A DNA stretch of 64,000 nucleotides from an uncultured Pelagibacteraceae bacterium (GCA_902616245.1 CACMSB010000006.1:2005-66004); one strand, 5' to 3'. Shown: positions 1,902 through 10,872, counted from the stretch's first letter. A program made the numbers and translations. The notes: generated by a model from the sequence alone, not told the origin.

Positions 1902-2936
1902 TTATTTAGTGAATGTATCGTTAAATTGCTTAGTAACTCTGACAAAAGTTGTGCACTTACTTAATTGTTTTAAAGAGGGTGCGCCAACATATGTACAACT
2001 ACTTCTTACACCACCTAAAATATTTAAAATGGTATCATTAATTTTACCACGGTACTTCACTCTGACTGTTCTTCCTTCGCTACTTCTGTAGTCTGATAGT
2101 CCACCGTAATGTTTATTGTTAGCTGTTTCAGAACTCGATCCATAAAATTCGACATATTTAGAACCATTAGATTTTACTAATTTTCCTTTACCTTCATCAT
2201 GACCTGCAAACATTCCTCCAAGCATAACAAAATCAGCTCCTCCACCAAATGCTTTAGCAACATCACCTGGACATGTACATCCGCCATCTGCAATGATATG
2301 TGCACCTAATCCATGAGCAGCATCAGCGCATTCTATCACTGCACTTAACTGTGGATATCCAACTCCAGTTTGTATTCGTGTTGTACAAACACTACCTGGT
2401 CCAATTCCAACTTTAACAATATCTGCACCTGATAAAATTAATTCTTGAGTCATATCAGCAGTAACAACGTTACCTGCTATGATTGTTTTCGTTGGATATT
2501 TATCTCTAACAGATTTTAGAAATTTACTAAAATGCTCTGAGTAACCATTTGCAACATCAATACAAATAAATTTAATGAAACTAAATTCTTTTAAAACTTT
2601 ATCTAAATTTTGAAAATCTTCTTTTTTTGTTCCAATACTTAAAGCTACATTTGGATATATTGATTTTATTTTTTTAAATTGTTTAATTTTCTTTACATCA
2701 TGTTGTTTTGTTAAACATGTAATCATTCCATAATCAGATAATTTTTCAGCAACACCAAGGACGCCCACACCATCCATGTTAGCTGCCATTATTGGAATTC
2801 CAGACCATTCGTTTTTACTGTATTTAAAACGATAGGTTCTCTTTAAATTAACATCTTTTCTACTTTTAAGAGTGCTTCTTTTAGGTCTAAAAAGTACGTC
2901 GGAATAATCTAGTTTTAGCTCTTCTTCAATTCTCAC
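1902..2936 (-). CDS. guaC: GMP reductase
   Basis: (M)[26 protein letters not shown]-terminus, [22 protein letters not shown] with catalytic Cys, FYGSSS. Start moved to GTG at 2936 to match the family N-terminus. Confidence 0.95.
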
Positions 2937-3058
2937 AAAAATGAAGGTATACATCCAATGAATGATAATTCAATTTAATAATTGACCTTATTAACGTTGT
3001 ATTTGAACAATTTTAAAATTACTGATTGAATTATAAAAATATATATTAAAGTAAATAA

Positions 3059-3934
3059 ATGTTTGAAGGTTTTAAGAGCAGATATATAAAAGTAAAAAAA
3101 GGGAAAGTCTTTTGTAAAGTTAAAGGAGAAGGACCACCTTTATTATTACTCCATGGTTACCCCCAAACGCATTTAATGTGGCACAAAACAGCTCCAGAGT
3201 TATCTAAAAGTTTTACAGTGGTTGCAGCAGACCTTAGAGGTTATGGAAATAGTTTGGCACCGTCATCTGATAGTAAGCATTTTAATTATTCAAAAAGAGA
3301 AATGGCAAGTGATATGAAGCAAATGATGGTAAAATTGGGGTATTCTAAATTTTTTGTTGCTGGCCATGATAGGGGCGGAAGAGTTGCTCATAGATTGGCA
3401 AGAGATCATAGAAAAAATGTGCTTGCTCTCAGCGTTTTAGATATTTGTCCAACTTTAGATATGTATGAATTAACAACAAGAGATTTTGCAAAAGCTTACT
3501 TCCATTGGTTTTTCTTAATTCAACCAAAGTGGCTACCAGAAAGAATGATAATGAGTGATCCAAGAAAATGGATGAAGTATTGCTTAGATAAATGGTCTGG
3601 GAATCATAAATTTGGAAAAGTTGAAGAGGGTTATCTAAAGTGCTTTAAGCAACCAAAGAGAATACATGGATCATGTGAGGATTATAGAGCATCTGCAACT
3701 ATTGATCTTGATCATGACAGATACGATCGAAAGAAAAAATTAAATATTCCTGTTCAAGTATTATGGGGAAAAAATGGTGTTATAGGTAAACAATTTAAAC
3801 CTATTAAAATTTGGCAAAAATATTCAAATAAAAAAGTTTTAGGAGTTGCTGTTAAATCTGGACATTTTATACCAGAGCAAAATCCCAAAGAAACAATTAA
3901 ACAATTAAAAAGTTTCTTTTTAAAAAATGCTTAA
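3059..3934 (+). CDS. Alpha/beta-hydrolase, haloacetate (fluoroacetate) dehalogenase type
   Basis: HGYPQT; GHD104R105GGR108; LD128ICPT; YFH149W150; CEDY209RA; GH269FIPE. These are the nucleophile, carboxylate-binding, halide-pocket and base residues of fluoroacetate dehalogenases. Confidence 0.85.
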   Translation: MFEGFKSRYIKVKKGKVFCKVKGEGPPLLLLHGYPQTHLMWHKTAPELSKSFTVVAADLRGYGNSLAPSSDSKHFNYSKREMASDMKQMMVKLGYSKFFVAGHDRGGRVAHRLARDHRKNVLALSVLDICPTLDMYELTTRDFAKAYFHWFFLIQPKWLPERMIMSDPRKWMKYCLDKWSGNHKFGKVEEGYLKCFKQPKRIHGSCEDYRASATIDLDHDRYDRKKKLNIPVQVLWGKNGVIGKQFKPIKIWQKYSNKKVLGVAVKSGHFIPEQNPKETIKQLKSFFLKNA

Positions 3935-4715
3935 AATTATTCCTAATAAAAAAAATATAGGTGCAGAATTAGTCTGTGATTTAAATAAAATTAATAATTC
4001 TACATTAAAAAAAATAAAATCTGCTCTCTCAAAATATGGAATGATTTATTTTAGAAACCAAAAATTAAGCTCTGATCATTATGTAAAATTTGCAAAAAAA
4101 TTTGGAAAACTTGCAAATTATCCAAGACTTAAAGGATTGAATAAAAAATATCCTCAAATAACTGTTGTTCAAAGAAAATCTACAGATAAAGGCCCTAGTT
4201 TTGGTGAGCAATTTCATACTGACTCAATTTATACTAAAAAACCACCTAGATTTACTATGTTACTATCTAAATTAGTTCCAAAAAAAGGTCAGGCAAACAC
4301 AGATTTTTGTTCCCAATATTTAGCTTATGAGAAATTACCAGCAAACTTTAAAAGAAAGTTGAAAGACGAAAAATGTATATTTTCTTCTGAAGGACCCATT
4401 TCTGTAACAAGATTAGAAAGAGAGAAAGAAAAGGGTAAAAAAGCGAAAGAACTTATTTCAAAGCATAAATTAATAAGAAAAATAAATAGTAAATATACTT
4501 TATACTGTAGTCCTGGACACTTTATTCGTTTTAATAACAGCAAAATTGATGAAAAATTAAAAACTTATTTATTTAAACACCAATTAAAAAAAAGTTTTCA
4601 ATATTCTTTAGAATGGGAAAAGAACCAATTAGCCATTTGGGATAACAGATCTATGCTACATCAAGCAACGGCCTTTAAAGGTAATAGAATTATGCATAGA
4701 ATTACTGTCCAATAA
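3927..4715 (+). CDS. TauD/TfdA-family Fe(II)/2-oxoglutarate dioxygenase
   Basis: HxD motif (FHTDS), WDNRSMLH with distal His, RIMHR with the 2OG-binding Arg, N-terminal IGAEL...YFRNQ. Confidence 0.85.
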   Translation: MLKIIPNKKNIGAELVCDLNKINNSTLKKIKSALSKYGMIYFRNQKLSSDHYVKFAKKFGKLANYPRLKGLNKKYPQITVVQRKSTDKGPSFGEQFHTDSIYTKKPPRFTMLLSKLVPKKGQANTDFCSQYLAYEKLPANFKRKLKDEKCIFSSEGPISVTRLEREKEKGKKAKELISKHKLIRKINSKYTLYCSPGHFIRFNNSKIDEKLKTYLFKHQLKKSFQYSLEWEKNQLAIWDNRSMLHQATAFKGNRIMHRITVQ

Positions 4716-5638
4716 TGTTTCAGGTATTTCTAGGATTAACACCATTTATAGGCATTACGCTTATAGGTTATCTTTTAGGATATATTAAAATATTTGATTT
4801 ACAAAAGGCTAAAATATTTAATTTATTTTCATTTTATATAGCGGTACCAGCTTTAATCATAAAACTAGTTGCACAAAGTGATGTTGGGGAAATAGATGTG
4901 TCTCAAATTTCATCATATTTTTTAATGCAATTAACGAGTGGAATATTTGCTTTTTTATTAACTAAAAATACTTTCAAAAGATCAATTCAAGAGTCAATTA
5001 TTTGGGCTTTAACAGTTGCTTTATCTAATCACGTAATATTAGTTTTACCTATTGCAGAAATTTTCTTTGCAGGGAGTACGATAACTCAAATATCAGGTAT
5101 TATTTTAATGGATAGTGTAGTTTTAATATCCATAGTTAGTTTCTTTTTAGAACTTACTGTAAAAAAGAGAATCAAATTATTTCAGTTTTTAAGAAATTTA
5201 ATATTAAATCCGATGATATTAGCAATATTAATTGGATTGATTATAAGAATTTCAAAGATCAATATAGACGACACTCCATTTGAGTATATTCTCCAAAGAC
5301 TTGCAGCATGTGTGATGCCAGTTGGGTTATTTGCAATTGGTATTATTCTATCTTTTTACTCAAAAAAAGTTTTCAATAAATTAACAATTACTATTTCAAT
5401 ATTAAAACTTATTATATCACCACTGATTTTGCTAATTTTAGGGTACACATTTTTTAGCTTATCAAATCCAATCAATTTTGCCGGAGCTTTGTTGGTTAGT
5501 GTTGGTCCTTGTGGAGCTACCTCAATTGTTATGTGTTCTGCGTATAATGTAAGTCCAGAAAATATTATTAAGGCAATATTTATTTCAACATTTGCTTCAA
5601 TATTTACCTTTTTATTTACAATAAATTTATTAAATTAA
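4715..5638 (+). CDS. AEC-family (auxin efflux carrier / malonate-malate permease-like) transporter
   Basis: About 10 hydrophobic segments; YIAVPALI, NPMILAILIG, MPVGLFAIG, KLIISPLI and C-terminal STFASIFT patterns. Confidence 0.8.
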   Translation: MFQVFLGLTPFIGITLIGYLLGYIKIFDLQKAKIFNLFSFYIAVPALIIKLVAQSDVGEIDVSQISSYFLMQLTSGIFAFLLTKNTFKRSIQESIIWALTVALSNHVILVLPIAEIFFAGSTITQISGIILMDSVVLISIVSFFLELTVKKRIKLFQFLRNLILNPMILAILIGLIIRISKINIDDTPFEYILQRLAACVMPVGLFAIGIILSFYSKKVFNKLTITISILKLIISPLILLILGYTFFSLSNPINFAGALLVSVGPCGATSIVMCSAYNVSPENIIKAIFISTFASIFTFLFTINLLN

Positions 5639-5644
5639 ATAAAT

Positions 5645-6094
5645 ATGATCAAAAATATATTTAGTATCCTTTTTATTTCTTTATTCTTATCATCGATTTC
5701 GATAGCTAAAGATAAAATAGATGAAACTATTGATAAAACCACTGACTTTTTAAAATCTATATCTAAGAAAAGTTTGAATAAATCACAAACTGCAGAATTT
5801 TTAAATAATTATGCAATAACATTGGAAGATGAGAGAAATCAAGGTGTTGTAACTTATATATTTGATGAAAAAAATTATAAAAGATACCAAGATGGAAACG
5901 TCATTTCAGAAGATGGATGGAGATTTACAAACTTTGGTAAATTAAGAGTTTTTTCAGGAGATATCAAATTAACATGGAAATTTAAACTTGATAAGCAAAA
6001 CGTAATAGTAATTAAAACTAAATTTCAACCACTTGGAAAAGAATATCCTTTTACCTACCAACTAAAAGATAAGTTCTTTGAACAAATTAACTAA
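5645..6094 (+). CDS. Hypothetical exported protein
   Basis: 149-aa ORF with a signal-peptide-like N-terminus (MIKNIFSILFISLFLSSISIA|K); no recognised motif. Confidence 0.7.
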   Translation: MIKNIFSILFISLFLSSISIAKDKIDETIDKTTDFLKSISKKSLNKSQTAEFLNNYAITLEDERNQGVVTYIFDEKNYKRYQDGNVISEDGWRFTNFGKLRVFSGDIKLTWKFKLDKQNVIVIKTKFQPLGKEYPFTYQLKDKFFEQIN

Positions 6095-6208
6095 ATGTCA
6101 AAAAGATATAGCGGTAAATCATTTAAAGACTCTAGTGTAATGAAAAAAGCCAAACTTTCTCTTAAGGAAAAAAGAAAAATTAAAAAAGATAAGAAAAAGA
6201 GTAAGTGA
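6095..6208 (+). CDS. Putative 37-aa lysine-rich small protein
   Basis: ATG directly follows the upstream TAA. Hand translation MSKRYSGKSFKDSSVMKKAKLSLKEKRKIKKDKKKSK*; below the ORF-track cutoff. Confidence 0.45.
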   Translation: MSKRYSGKSFKDSSVMKKAKLSLKEKRKIKKDKKKSK

Positions 6209-6216
6209 AATCTTGT

Positions 6217-6244
6217 TTGCATCAAAAAATAAAAGTAGTATAAA
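6217..6244 (+). promoter_or_regulatory. Candidate sigma70 promoter for tRNA-Met
   Basis: TTGCAT (6217-6222), 16-bp spacer, TATAAA (6239-6244), 15 nt upstream of the tRNA. Confidence 0.45.
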
Positions 6245-6259
6245 CCAACAATTATTTAC

Positions 6260-6336
6260 GGCGGGGTAGCTCAGTTGGTTAGAGCGCGGGACTCATAAGC
6301 CCGAGGTCAGTGGTTCGATCCCACTTCCCGCTACCA
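6260..6336 (+). tRNA. tRNA-Met (CAT), most likely elongator
   Basis: 77-nt cloverleaf: acceptor GGCGGGG/TCCCGCT, D-arm AGCTCAGTTGGTTAGAGC, anticodon loop CTCATAA, T-loop TTCGATC, encoded CCA. G1:U72, G2:C71, C3:G70 and A73, with no C1:A72 mismatch, argue against the initiator. Confidence 0.96.
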
Positions 6337-6864
6337 TCAATGACCAGGAAAATCTAAAAGATTTTCAACTTTATATCCTTTTTTTAAAAGATTATCAGTA
6401 CCACCAAGATCAAACAAATTAATTACAAAAATAAATCCTGCAACCTTGCTTTTTGATATTTCTATTAGTTTAGCTGCAGCTTCAGCAGTACCTCCAGTTG
6501 CAATTAAGTCATCAATAATTAATACATTATCGCTTTCATTAAATGAGTCTTTATGAACTTCAATTGTAGCCGTTCCATATTCTAGCTCAAAATCAACAGA
6601 ATGTACCTCAGCGGGTAGTTTATTTTTTTTTCTTAACATTATAAATGGCTTATCTAAGATGTATGAAATAGCAGAAGCAAATACAAAACCCCTAGATTCT
6701 ACAGCTGCTATTTTATCAAAATTAAATTTTTTTGATCTCTCTACTATTTGATCAATACATTCTTTAAATGCTTTTTCATTTTTTATGAGAGTTGTGATGT
6801 CTCTAAATAGAATTCCCTTTTTAGGATAGTCTTGAATTGATCTAATATGTTCTTTTAAATCCAT
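6337..6864 (-). CDS. apt: Adenine phosphoribosyltransferase
   Basis: DYPKKGILFRDITTL, ESRGF, LEYGTA, PRPP-binding IIDDLIATGGT. Confidence 0.97.
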   Translation of the reverse strand: MDLKEHIRSIQDYPKKGILFRDITTLIKNEKAFKECIDQIVERSKKFNFDKIAAVESRGFVFASAISYILDKPFIMLRKKNKLPAEVHSVDFELEYGTATIEVHKDSFNESDNVLIIDDLIATGGTAEAAAKLIEISKSKVAGFIFVINLFDLGGTDNLLKKGYKVENLLDFPGH

Positions 6865-6872
6865 AAAACTTA

Positions 6873-6880
6873 ATTATAAT
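6873..6880. promoter_or_regulatory. Palindromic ATTATAAT giving a perfect TATAAT -10 box on both strands in the 28-bp apt/mtnP gap
   Basis: TATAAT at 6875-6880 (+) lies 12 nt before the mtnP ATG; TATAAT at 6878-6873 (-) lies 8 nt before the apt ATG. Confidence 0.45.
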
Positions 6881-6892
6881 CTAAAACGTATT

Positions 6893-7762
6893 ATGGCAAA
6901 TAATAAATTAGCAATTATTGGTGGAAGTGGCCTATATGATGTTGAAGAGTTTAAAGATAGAGAAACTTTAGATTTAAACACTCCTTGGGGAAAACCCTCA
7001 GATTTAATATTAAAAGCTGAATATAATAATAAAGAAATTTTTTTTTTACCAAGACATGGAAAAGGTCATTTTATTTCTCCATCAAAAATAAATTTTAGAG
7101 CAAATATAGATGCTCTTAAACAACTAGGTATCACAGATATAGTTTCTGTTTCAGCAGTTGGATCTTTAAAGGAAGATTTGCCTCCAGGTAAATTTGTTAT
7201 CGTTGATCAATTCATTGATAGAACTTTTGCAAGATACAAAACTTTTTTTGATGATGAGATTGTTGCACATGTATCAATGGCACACCCAACTTCAAATGGG
7301 CTGATGAATGCTTGCGAAGATGCTATAAAAAAAGAAAGCATACCTTATCAAAGAGGTGGAACTTATGTTGTAATGGAAGGTCCACAATTTTCTACATTAG
7401 CAGAGTCAAACCTATATAGATCATGGAAAGCAGATGTTATTGGAATGACAAATATGCCAGAAGCTAAACTAGCAAGAGAAGCAGAAATTAGATATGCTTC
7501 AGTTTCAATGGTAACAGATTATGATTGCTGGCATCCAGATCATGAAAATGTTGATGTTCAACAAGTTATAAAAGTACTCTTAGATAATGCAGCGAAAGCA
7601 AAAAACATGATTAAAAATTTGATAGAGAACTTTGAAAATCACATTGATCCTAAGGATCCAACTAATAATTGCTTAGATGTAGCAATAATTACTGCTCCAG
7701 AAAAAAGAACTCAAAAGACTAAAGATAAATTAAAAACAATTGCAGGAAGAGTTCTTACTTAA
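6893..7762 (+). CDS. mtnP: S-methyl-5'-thioadenosine phosphorylase
   Basis: IIGGSGLY, FLPRHG, INFRANI, MEGPQFSTLAES, DVIGMTNMPEAKLAREAE, TDYDCW. Confidence 0.95.
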   Translation: MANNKLAIIGGSGLYDVEEFKDRETLDLNTPWGKPSDLILKAEYNNKEIFFLPRHGKGHFISPSKINFRANIDALKQLGITDIVSVSAVGSLKEDLPPGKFVIVDQFIDRTFARYKTFFDDEIVAHVSMAHPTSNGLMNACEDAIKKESIPYQRGGTYVVMEGPQFSTLAESNLYRSWKADVIGMTNMPEAKLAREAEIRYASVSMVTDYDCWHPDHENVDVQQVIKVLLDNAAKAKNMIKNLIENFENHIDPKDPTNNCLDVAIITAPEKRTQKTKDKLKTIAGRVLT

Positions 7763-8838
7763 TGAAAATTAATGGTGTTAAATATAAAACAATTTGGTTT
7801 GATGAAGAAAAACAGGTTGTAAAAATAATAGATCAAACAAAGCTTCCACATAAGTTTATAATAAAAGAATTAAATTCAGTTAAAGACGCGATAAATGCTA
7901 TAAAAACAATGGAGGTGAGAGGTGCTCCATTAATCGGAGGTACAGCTGCATTTGGATTGGTTTTAGCTATAAAAGAAAATAACAGTTTAGATTTTATAAA
8001 AAAAAGTTCAGAGGAATTAGTTGCATCTAGACCAACAGCAATAAATCTTCAGTGGGCAGTTCATAGAATGAATAACAAATTGTCATTTGTTGAACCTGGA
8101 GATTTATTTAATGTTGCACTCAATGAAGCTAAAGAAATTTGTAAAGAGGATGAGGGATTTTGTGAAAGTATTGGTAAAAATGGATTAAATATTATTGAAG
8201 ATATATATAATAAAAAGAAAGATACTGTCAATATTCTCACACATTGTAATGCAGGTTGGTTAGCTACAATAGATTGGGGAACAGCAACTTCTCCTATTTA
8301 TCATGCACATAAAAAAGGAATACCTATACATGTTTGGGTAGATGAAACTAGACCAAGAAATCAAGGAGCAAACCTTACATCATATGAACTTAATGAAGAA
8401 GAAATTCCAAATACAATTATAGCAGATAATACAGGTGGAATATTAATGCAAAGAGGACAGGTTGATATGTGTATTGTTGGAACAGATAGAACATTATCTA
8501 ACGGAGATGTGTGCAATAAAATTGGAACCTATTTAAAAGCTCTTGCAGCTCATGATAATAAGGTACCTTTTTACGTAGCTTTACCAAGTTCAACGATAGA
8601 TTGGAATTTAAAAAACGCAAAAAATATTCCTATAGAAGAAAGAGATCCAAAAGAACTTTCTCATGTGGATGGAATTAACAAAGATAATAAAGTGGATAAA
8701 GTTTTAATATATCCCGAAAAAAGCAAATCATTAAATTTAGCCTTTGATGTAACACCTGCTAAATATGTTACTGCATTAATAACAGAAAAGGGAGTTTGTG
8801 ATGCTTCTTCTGAGGGTTTAAAAAAGTTATTTAATTAA
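7762..8838 (+). CDS. mtnA: S-methyl-5-thioribose-1-phosphate isomerase
   Basis: MEVRGAPLIG, SRPTAINL, THCNAGWLAT, ETRPRNQGA, GTDR...NKIGTY, AFDVTPAKYV. Confidence 0.95.
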   Translation: MKINGVKYKTIWFDEEKQVVKIIDQTKLPHKFIIKELNSVKDAINAIKTMEVRGAPLIGGTAAFGLVLAIKENNSLDFIKKSSEELVASRPTAINLQWAVHRMNNKLSFVEPGDLFNVALNEAKEICKEDEGFCESIGKNGLNIIEDIYNKKKDTVNILTHCNAGWLATIDWGTATSPIYHAHKKGIPIHVWVDETRPRNQGANLTSYELNEEEIPNTIIADNTGGILMQRGQVDMCIVGTDRTLSNGDVCNKIGTYLKALAAHDNKVPFYVALPSSTIDWNLKNAKNIPIEERDPKELSHVDGINKDNKVDKVLIYPEKSKSLNLAFDVTPAKYVTALITEKGVCDASSEGLKKLFN

Positions 8839-10872
8839 TTATCTTAAAGAAGCTGCAATATTTCCACCGTCAACAGTTAGTACTGCTCCAGTTGATTTTT
8901 TTGATATCGCAAGATGATAAAAAGCTTTGGCCACATCATCTGCTTTAACTTCGCTTAACAGTAAATTGCCACTCATATATTGATCAGTGGTTACTTCTCT
9001 TGCTTTCGCTCTTTGTTTAATCATTTTATCATTTAATAAACCACTTCTAATTCTATCAGCGTTTACACCGTTTGATCTAATACCAAGGTGTCCATAATCA
9101 ACTGCATATTGTTTACATAAATTTAAAAGCGCAGACTTAGGCAATCCATATGGTCCAAAATTTTTACCAGGATTAACTGATTGCTTAGATATATTAAATA
9201 ACAAACATCCATTTATATTTTGTTTTTTCATAATTTTAACAGCCTCTGAAGCACAATTTTGATGTGAGAAAAAATTATCTTCAAAACTTTTTCGAAGTAT
9301 TTCATCATTAACTTCTGCAATTGATCCACCTATAGCAGTGCCTGCATTAGATATTAAAATATCTACACCTCCATATATCTCCAAAATTTTATTAAATGCT
9401 TTTTTTACACTTTGTTTGTCAGTTACATCACAGTGGATACAAAGATCACTTATTTTTGTTTGCAAATCATTTATTTTACTTTTATTAATATCAAGTAAAA
9501 CAACTTCAGCTCCATATTTTTTAAATAATTTATAGGTTGCTTTACCAATTTCGCCTGTGCTACCAGTGATAACAACAACGTTTCCTTGCAATTCTTTTTT
9601 TGCTTTATTTAATTTTGCTTGTTCCAAGGACCAATACTCAACATCAAATAAGTCTTTTTTCGATAAAAATTTATATCTGGATGTTTCCTCAACACTTGAA
9701 ATTACATTGGCATTAGTTTGAGTTAAATCTCCTGCAATTTTTGCAGCTTTTAAGGTATCTCCTACTGTAAATAAACCAAAATTCTGAACTAGAATTACTC
9801 TAGGAGATGTATCAAGCATTACTTTTTTTTCTTTAGTTTTTTTCTTATTAGATTCAAAATATTTTTTATATTTTTGCCTATATTCTTTGAATTTTTTTTC
9901 AGCTAAATTTTTAAATTCATCTAAATTACAGTTTGCTTTTGGTGATATTACTAAAGGAAATGGTTTAACTCTTATAACATGATCAGGTGTAGCTGTACCT
10001 TCATTTGAGTATCTATTTATATCTTTACCATTAATAAAATAATCTAACTTACTATTTTTTTTAAAATTTATGATAAATTTGTTATCATTTTTTTCAGATA
10101 AAAGACCTCTCAATATAGGAGCTATATCTGCAGTTGAGAAATTAAATTTAGTTTTCTTTATCTGTTTTATTTTTTTCTTTTTTAGTTTGGTTAAAGTTTT
10201 TTCAGCATCAGATATATACTTTATCATTAAACTGTAAGCATCTTTTGCATTATCAGCAAATGTGAAAATACCGTGGTTTAATAAAATCAAACAATTTATA
10301 TTTGGATTTTTAGAATAAACTTCATTTATTTTTTGTGCTAATTTAAATCCTGGCATTACATATGGCACTATTGCAGTTTTTTTACCAAATATTTTTTTTG
10401 ATAAGATTTCTCCATTTGGTCTATTAGTGATTTTCATAATTGCATCAGAATGAGTGTGATCAACAAATTTTAACGGTAAAAATGCGTGTAAAAAAGTTTC
10501 AACTGATGGATTGGGAGATTTTGTATCTATTAAATTTTTTTTTTGAAAAGCAACCATGTCATCATCAGAGAGAGTTTTCTTTTTTTTCATAGTTAGCAAT
10601 GGATTTAATTTAACTGCTGGCAAACCCGCTGGTTCAATTTCCGCCATATCCCATCCGCTGCCTTTTACGCAAAGAACATCATAATATTTACCATCTATAT
10701 CCTTGATTTTTGTCTTAACTGATGTATTTCCACCACCATGCAATACCAATTCTGGATTTCTTCCTAGAAGCCTAGTTGTATAAACTCTTAGAGCCATATC
10801 CTCAGAATGACCTAATTTTTTATACTTTTTTATGTATTTTTTAGCTTCGTTATCTGACCAATTGTTTTTCAA
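8839..10872 (-). CDS. Bifunctional class II aldolase / short-chain dehydrogenase (RhaD/RhaEW-like fusion)
   Basis: N-domain GGGNTSVK, PSVETFLH, DHTH and NHG (Zn ligands). C-domain TGSTGEIG, NAG and YGLPK (SDR). TTG start with a GAGG SD. Confidence 0.88.
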   Translation of the reverse strand: MKNNWSDNEAKKYIKKYKKLGHSEDMALRVYTTRLLGRNPELVLHGGGNTSVKTKIKDIDGKYYDVLCVKGSGWDMAEIEPAGLPAVKLNPLLTMKKKKTLSDDDMVAFQKKNLIDTKSPNPSVETFLHAFLPLKFVDHTHSDAIMKITNRPNGEILSKKIFGKKTAIVPYVMPGFKLAQKINEVYSKNPNINCLILLNHGIFTFADNAKDAYSLMIKYISDAEKTLTKLKKKKIKQIKKTKFNFSTADIAPILRGLLSEKNDNKFIINFKKNSKLDYFINGKDINRYSNEGTATPDHVIRVKPFPLVISPKANCNLDEFKNLAEKKFKEYRQKYKKYFESNKKKTKEKKVMLDTSPRVILVQNFGLFTVGDTLKAAKIAGDLTQTNANVISSVEETSRYKFLSKKDLFDVEYWSLEQAKLNKAKKELQGNVVVITGSTGEIGKATYKLFKKYGAEVVLLDINKSKINDLQTKISDLCIHCDVTDKQSVKKAFNKILEIYGGVDILISNAGTAIGGSIAEVNDEILRKSFEDNFFSHQNCASEAVKIMKKQNINGCLLFNISKQSVNPGKNFGPYGLPKSALLNLCKQYAVDYGHLGIRSNGVNADRIRSGLLNDKMIKQRAKAREVTTDQYMSGNLLLSEVKADDVAKAFYHLAISKKSTGAVLTVDGGNIAASLR

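Follow-up and report, generated by a model that had tools for sequence, protein, structure and literature searches.

Fluoroacetate dehalogenases and a SAR11 relative

Among natural catalysts that hydrolyse C-F bonds, the best understood are the fluoroacetate dehalogenases (FAcDs) of the alpha/beta-hydrolase type. In the enzyme of Burkholderia sp. FA1 (FAc-DEX FA1, 1Y37) the catalytic triad is D104-H271-D128, accompanied by R105, R108, H149, W150 and Y212; the His-Trp-Tyr group stabilises the departing fluoride, and Trp150 is needed for defluorination but not for dechlorination (PMC11022551). FA1 and RPA1163 of Rhodopseudomonas palustris (3R3U and many other entries), the mechanism of which has been charted in detail by crystallography, are both homodimers, and RPA1163 is tabulated as active on fluoroacetate and difluoroacetate, as are NOS0089 (Alr0039; 3QYJ, Q8Z0Q1; 291 aa) of Nostoc sp. 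PCC 7120 and DAR3835 (8SDC) (PMC11022551). The FAcD of Delftia acidovorans D4B also has a deposited structure, 9C9F. FAcD genes have been called rare in RefSeq genomes in a recent bioRxiv preprint survey. The sole marine haloacetate dehalogenase with a demonstrated physiological role is ZgHAD of Zobellia galactanivorans, which provides tolerance to bromo- and iodoacetate (PMC8490876). ZgHAD likewise converts haloacetate to glycolate and halide by way of an aspartyl ester, but it is of the HAD type, with a fold unrelated to that of the protein described here, and has no reported action on fluoroacetate.

The locus considered here lies in a 64,000-nt stretch of Pelagibacteraceae DNA (GCA_902616245.1 CACMSB010000006.1:2005-66004), referred to as the window, and coordinates are given in its numbering (Table 1). 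The translated ORF carries D104 and R105 in the motif GHDRGGR with R108 just beyond, D128 in VLDICP, H149 and W150 in YFHWFF, Y209 in CEDYRA and H269 in SGHFIPE. All eight residues are where the sequence-only reading of this DNA had put them, and its statement that the first six are numbered as in FA1 is right, because the published FA1 numbers D104, R105, R108, D128, H149 and W150 coincide (PMC11022551), and the phmmer match (E = 1.7e-71) runs from residues 1-287 to 1-289. Equivalence to FA1, including that of Y209 with Y212 and of H269 with H271, is drawn from these published numbers and the phmmer span and not from a residue-level alignment. The streamlined marine setting proposed in the same reading is correct, since GC is close to 30% across the window and the protein is 95-99% identical to its counterparts in Pelagibacteraceae single-cell genomes. 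What it said of the His/Trp/Tyr halide pocket agrees with the literature (PMC11022551), as does glycolate as the product (PMC11022551, PMC13230308), and its assignment to the haloacetate dehalogenases is supported by full-length FAcD homology at 44-50% identity with the same set of active-site residues.

Table 1. Features at and around the predicted dehalogenase gene. Nucleotide positions are in window numbering and residue positions are those of the dehalogenase; RPA1163 residues are in native numbering, to which 2 is added in the chain numbering of the alignment.
Feature	Position	Strand	RPA1163 equivalent	Remarks
Tartrate/isopropylmalate-dehydrogenase-like gene		-		First in the window-type gene order
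guaC-like gene	1902..2954	-		ORF; second in order, divergent from the dehalogenase
Divergent AT-rich intergenic region	2955..3058	.		104 bp, between the guaC-like gene (-) and the dehalogenase
FAcD-family haloacetate dehalogenase gene (predicted)	3059..3934	+		ORF, ATG to stop, 291 aa
Oxyanion motif, HGYP	residues 32-35			
Predicted triad nucleophile	D104		D110	
Predicted carboxylate clamp	R105, R108		R111, R114	Nucleophile +1 and +4
Predicted triad acid	D128		D134	
Predicted halide pocket	H149, W150		H155, W156	With Y209
Predicted pocket or gate residue	W179		W185	
Predicted halide pocket	Y209		Y219	With H149 and W150
Predicted triad base	H269		H280	
TauD/TfdA-family Fe(II)/2-oxoglutarate dioxygenase gene	3927..4715	+		262 aa; Pfam TauD 5e-39
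AEC-family (Mem_trans) membrane permease gene	4715..5638	+		307 aa; Pfam Mem_trans 5e-22; TIGR00946 below cut-off
149-aa ORF	5645-6094			Last of the window-type set; N-terminal hydrophobic segment; no Pfam match

Comparison of the window dehalogenase with PDB sequences by phmmer gives 3QYJ at 3.6e-97, 9C9F at 5.5e-83, 8SDC at 2.8e-82, 3R3U at 1.5e-77 and 1Y37 at 1.7e-71, and the matches to 3QYJ and RPA1163 are both full-length. Matches between 3.6e-97 and about 1e-68 fall into two groups, of which one comprises alpha/beta-type FAcDs (3QYJ Alr0039, 9C9F, 8SDC/8SDD, many RPA1163 entries, and 1Y37/3B12 FA1) and the other the uncharacterised structural-genomics homologues 4NVR and 4B9A. The protein is 50% identical to NOS0089, 48% to the D4B enzyme (9C9F), 45% to DAR3835 and 44% to RPA1163; judged by these matches, the resemblance is homology and not chance.

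NOS0089 and the window protein are equally long, align from their first residue onward with just two gaps of one residue each, and share both a 10-residue signature (Y34, D104, R105, R108, D128, H149, W150, W179, Y209 and H269) and the motif C175-L-x-K-W179. NOS0089 is, however, cyanobacterial, differs at half of its residues, and is not the sister of the SAR11 proteins in a distance tree. The RPA1163 alignment brings the triad, the Arg pair, His-Trp-Tyr and the W185 equivalent into register over the full length, but RPA1163 has HGFP in place of HGYP, the Lys of its K181-W185 gate pair corresponds to C175 in the SAR11 protein, and its cap contains several short insertions relative to the latter. 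The bioRxiv survey places the genes for FA1 and for H-1 (DehH1, Delftia acidovorans B) on mobile elements or close to them, whereas the SAR11 gene is on the chromosome and in a syntenic position.

Pfam recognises only the generic alpha/beta-hydrolase fold (Abhydrolase_1, 1.5e-26, residues 26-276), and no NCBIfam equivalog model reached its cut-off for this protein. An AF2 model built on a shallow, SAR11-only alignment (pLDDT 74, pTM 0.78) has FAcD structures as all of its top 50 Foldseek matches in the PDB (TM about 0.77), and at the level of the model an alpha/beta-hydrolase fold with a helical cap is confirmed. The cap itself is poorly modelled, with pLDDT below 50 at residues 149-166 and 198-215, the region of H149, W150 and Y209, so that the pocket geometry is taken from the sequence alignment and is not informed by the model.

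Other dehalogenase classes were considered and rejected. Haloalkane dehalogenase (NCBIfam NF002938, NF002873 and NF002043) is ruled out at 67.1 bits against a cut-off of 241, with a match to the N-terminal half alone, and L-2-haloacid dehalogenase of the HAD superfamily is ruled out by the lack of any HAD-family match in Pfam or NCBIfam.

Family signature, substrate and occurrence in SAR11

The family to which the window protein belongs is large. Searched exhaustively, a set of 1.84 billion 50%-identity cluster representatives yields 651 clusters at E <= 1e-30. In an alignment of 116 sequences, made up of the window protein, four PDB enzymes, six SAR11 homologues and the 105 nearest full-length 50%-identity cluster representatives, D104, R105, R108, D128, H149, W150, Y209 and H269 are each present in 88-99%. 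Read from this alignment, the eight-residue set marks the whole FAcD-like family and is a sign of membership, not of a special SAR11 adaptation. The ten-residue pattern YDRRDHWWYH is common to the SAR11 protein, NOS0089 and DAR3835. The distance tree has a star-like shape and little resolution; in it the SAR11 sequences make up a separate clade on a long stem, and the four validated enzymes are spread over three parts, with NOS0089 and DAR3835 as a pair. Since validated enzymes occur in three separate parts of the tree, dehalogenase activity would be a family-wide trait, and the distribution suggests that dehalogenation is a general property of FAcD-like proteins.

Homologues of the FAcD-like type also occur in cyanobacteria and turn up often on plasmids and chromids of Rhizobium, Klebsiella, Pantoea, Paraburkholderia and acetic acid bacteria, where they are mostly annotated 'alpha/beta hydrolase'; a plasmid search gives many at 43-50% identity to the window dehalogenase. 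NCBI uses 'alpha/beta hydrolase' for the SAR11 proteins too. JGI/IMG names more distant relatives 'haloacetate dehalogenase', and the family assignment is thus already implicit in automated annotation.

Among the longer homologues we note, outside the window, an AraC-type regulator (Peripla_BP_3 + HTH_18) fused to a C-terminal FAcD-like domain in a 699-aa protein and its cluster (P0121). The domain is 47% identical to the window protein, the fusion recurs on several contigs from several sources, and it may represent a ligand-sensing or self-regulating dehalogenase. The remaining longer homologues resemble gene-call read-throughs, and none of the fusions seen among longer homologues indicates a substrate.

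Taking homology and active site together, the product of the gene is quite probably a working haloacetate dehalogenase of the alpha/beta-hydrolase FAcD type (EC 3.8.1.3), located in the cytoplasm, and conversion of haloacetate to glycolate and halide is well supported as its predicted reaction. By homology with the characterised enzymes, the substrate carboxylate would be bound by R105 and R108, and D104 would attack the alpha-carbon in an SN2 step with H149, W150 and Y209 hydrogen-bonding the leaving halide. The Asp-glycolyl ester would then be hydrolysed by water activated by H269 and D128, with release of glycolate and regeneration of the enzyme. Fluoroacetate is expected to be a good substrate because the pocket residues are the same as those of NOS0089, DAR3835 and RPA1163; chloro- and bromoacetate would be slower, and difluoroacetate possibly a weak substrate. 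At 44-50% identity the substrate range can nonetheless differ from that of the characterised FAcDs. No signal peptide is apparent on reading the sequence, so that the predicted reaction would be cytoplasmic and would require uptake of the substrate.

The sequence-only reading had proposed a survey of distribution and expression. The gene is widespread in Pelagibacteraceae genomes and is covered by metatranscriptome contigs. At least 352 species-representative genomes encode a relative (pattern scan, one genome per species), and the best 80 of these 352 relatives are all from Pelagibacteraceae. A metagenome protein search gives at least 8000 candidates, the best 120 of which are 74-98% identical to the window protein (nearly all of them 74-90%) and mostly about 291 aa long, and the 90%-identity cluster of the window dehalogenase has 1814 members. 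Across 119 SAR11 homologues at 74-90% identity, seven of the eight residues never vary, nor do W179, Y34 and P35, and D128 is replaced in just one of the 119. The dN/dS ratio (Nei-Gojobori, against eight loci) is 0.04-0.065, or about 0.05, even at dS of about 1.5, and the gene is under strong purifying selection in SAR11.

In four seawater metatranscriptomes, contigs cover the dehalogenase at a depth of the same order as that of the guaC-like and methylthioadenosine phosphorylase-like genes, contig depth being a poor measure that is too noisy for an RNA/DNA or a dehalogenase/guaC ratio and that may include DNA carry-over. Two raw-read DNA runs represent other populations; the majority of their reads match only in part, and the dehalogenase has almost no coverage in them. 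A literature search found no paper tying SAR11 or Pelagibacter to fluoroacetate, haloacetate or haloacid dehalogenase.

The breadth of the family bears on the question of what the SAR11 enzyme acts upon. The FAcD fold and its Asp-ester chemistry could be retained for some other small alpha-substituted carboxylate, with haloacetate hydrolysis as a side activity. The family is far wider than any known fluoroacetate exposure; many of its carriers have no record of such exposure, and in some of them the native substrate may be something other than a haloacetate. That a streamlined open-ocean genome keeps the gene under strong purifying selection points to a substrate that the cells meet at all times, and the characterised members came from screens on halogenated compounds only (PMC11022551). 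Yet members with this residue set have no known alternative substrate, the His-Trp-Tyr pocket is said to stabilise the leaving halide specifically (PMC11022551), and four relatives at 44-50% identity do dehalogenate. We therefore hold a different native substrate to be unlikely, while leaving it a modest chance, and keep haloacetate dehalogenation as the preferred function.

Genomic neighbourhood

The AT-rich region that separates the dehalogenase from its divergent neighbour presumably holds the promoters of both genes. The two weak sigma-70-like matches at 2982-3019 do not rise above chance expectation, and no block of the upstream intergenic region is conserved between SAR11 clades. Rfam has no match in this region, and across the window it identifies one tRNA only and no fluoride riboswitch; a scan for regulatory signals found no terminator-like sites.

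The window-type gene order of Table 1 is seen in the window and in about 52 similar loci. The divergent neighbour, which from its sequence alone we take to be guaC-like (GMP reductase/IMPDH family), adjoins the dehalogenase in every locus reaching that far, in both clades, and is the only stably conserved neighbour. On the other side, the dioxygenase gene lies directly behind the dehalogenase in the approximately 52 loci, with an 8-nt overlap between its start codon and the dehalogenase stop (ATGCTTAA). The permease start in turn overlaps the dioxygenase stop, and the permease always accompanies the dioxygenase. The best PDB matches of the dioxygenase are (R)-phenoxypropionate dioxygenase (2.4e-26) and TauD (1e-20), with the HxD, the distal His and the Arg all aligning; on present sequence comparison it is orthologous to neither. 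The 149-aa protein is found behind the permease at 82-99% identity in most window-type loci and is missing from some.

A different arrangement is seen in a sister clade of about 27 loci, in which the dehalogenase is about 88% identical and is followed by tldD and pmbA. The dioxygenase-permease cassette of this clade sits immediately behind a DAO-FAO_M-GCV_T (dimethylglycine-dehydrogenase-like, DMGDH-like) gene, and two minus-strand genes part it from the dehalogenase; it lies at 2067-3789 in sister-clade locus L058 and at 3927-5638 in the window. At the corresponding site in the window clade there is instead an 812-aa DAO/GCV_T-type (DMGDH-like) gene followed by an opposite-strand gene for a 293-aa multi-pass membrane protein, a pair that is seen in locus L001 (445-3754) just upstream of the window start.

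To the right of the window-type set, RNA and DNA depth in the region peaks at tRNA-Met (6260-6336). In loci that are otherwise collinear (L001-L055; window 6095-6893), the gap between the 149-aa gene and the apt-like gene can be as short as about 0.25 kb or exceed 3 kb, and this variable spacing suggests a small variable island beside the tRNA. The stretch at 6337-10872 presumably encodes, from reading of the translations, apt-like, methylthioadenosine phosphorylase-like and methylthioribose-1-phosphate isomerase-like proteins (methionine salvage), followed on the minus strand by what we take to be a 677-aa aldolase/short-chain-dehydrogenase-like fusion.

The dehalogenase neighbours examined include no glycolate or glyoxylate gene, which counts against the proposal that haloacetate scavenging yields glycolate or glyoxylate in amounts that matter for the SAR11 glycine requirement. 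The proposal is chemically coherent, in that glycolate is the established product of the family, and work by Carini et al. in 2013 is said to show that glycolate can substitute for glycine in cultured SAR11. Phytoplankton glycolate should, however, far exceed any haloacetate supply, and the additional gain in glycine would therefore be negligible. Haloacetic acids of natural and anthropogenic origin do occur in coastal seawater, but ZgHAD, albeit from a different enzyme family, gave tolerance to toxic haloacids and not nutrition (PMC8490876). We regard a nutritionally meaningful supply as improbable and do not think that the dehalogenase is a quantitatively important source of glycine. The most likely role for a haloacetate dehalogenase in these cells would be the removal of trace toxic monohaloacetates, with glycolate as a usable by-product.

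The gene arrangement raises a further scenario, in which the dehalogenase, the TauD-like dioxygenase and the AEC permease constitute one pathway, the permease importing substituted acetates on which the enzymes act sequentially or in parallel. In the window clade all three run in one direction, the stop codon of each overlapping the start of the next, RNA contigs span the dehalogenase-dioxygenase junction, and the best structural relatives of the dioxygenase cleave aryloxy-alkanoates; Burkholderia MBA4 has a dehalogenase-permease operon (cited in PMC8490876). The sister-clade loci, on the other hand, keep the cassette apart from the dehalogenase, and one RNA contig joins 3937 to 6177, corresponding to a form that lacks the cassette altogether. 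The link between dehalogenase and cassette is thus not conserved, the operon of dehalogenase, dioxygenase and permease is specific to one clade, and we give little credence to a common pathway. As the cassette moves between clades, the operon is not used as evidence for the substrate of the dehalogenase.

Enzyme class and significance

There remains the question of whether the protein is a dehalogenase at all, or instead an epoxide hydrolase or esterase. In alpha/beta epoxide hydrolases an aromatic residue comes after the nucleophilic Asp, and the epoxide is polarised by a pair of tyrosines in the cap. In the window protein Arg105 follows the nucleophile, and in our reading of the family H149/W150 sit in the cap at the position of the first of these tyrosines, so that only Y209 remains. 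Although epoxide hydrolases are the nearest other families, although the close homologue 4B9A (8e-68) was deposited as a 'probable epoxide hydrolase', and although a Ser-triad Serratia hydrolase is credited with both esterase and dehalogenase activities, this alternative is highly improbable: epoxide hydrolases enter the PDB match list only at 1e-31 (7AC0 1e-31, 1EHY 8e-24), every closer, validated relative is an FAcD (1e-97 to 1e-71), the nucleophile followed by Arg105, together with Arg108, is the FAcD-defining carboxylate clamp (PMC11022551), and the labels of 4B9A and 4NVR are depositor names, with no activity data found for either.

For the preferred reading, that of a haloacetate dehalogenase, the outcome is that the observation first made on this DNA is confirmed, and that its interpretation is partly supported, namely as regards the enzyme class; the ideas of glycine supply and of a part in ocean halogen cycling draw no support from the gene context. 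Membership of the FAcD family, an intact active site, purifying selection, broad occurrence in SAR11 and the existence of transcripts are established here, and the activity, the order of substrates and the physiological role are predictions. What appears to be new is a very abundant SAR11 member of a well-known enzyme family rather than a system of a new kind. It is of interest for the ecological question that it raises and for the ease with which that question can be tested by expression and assay.

A tentative extension, to which we assign a rather small chance, is that the SAR11 enzyme is a high-affinity dehalogenase kept because monohaloacetates, possibly including natural fluoroacetate, are always present in trace amounts in the dissolved organic matter of the open ocean. 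If this were true, FAcD-type genes would be among the most abundant dehalogenase genes on Earth, and acetates with C-F, C-Cl and C-Br bonds would find a major biological sink in SAR11. Should the enzyme prove inactive on haloacetates, the residue signature used for predicting defluorinases would be insufficient. Should it prove active, it would provide a cold-adapted, low-GC enzyme for comparison with those from soil, would imply that monohaloacetates reach the open ocean steadily from natural sources, and would change the view of where defluorinating capacity resides in nature.
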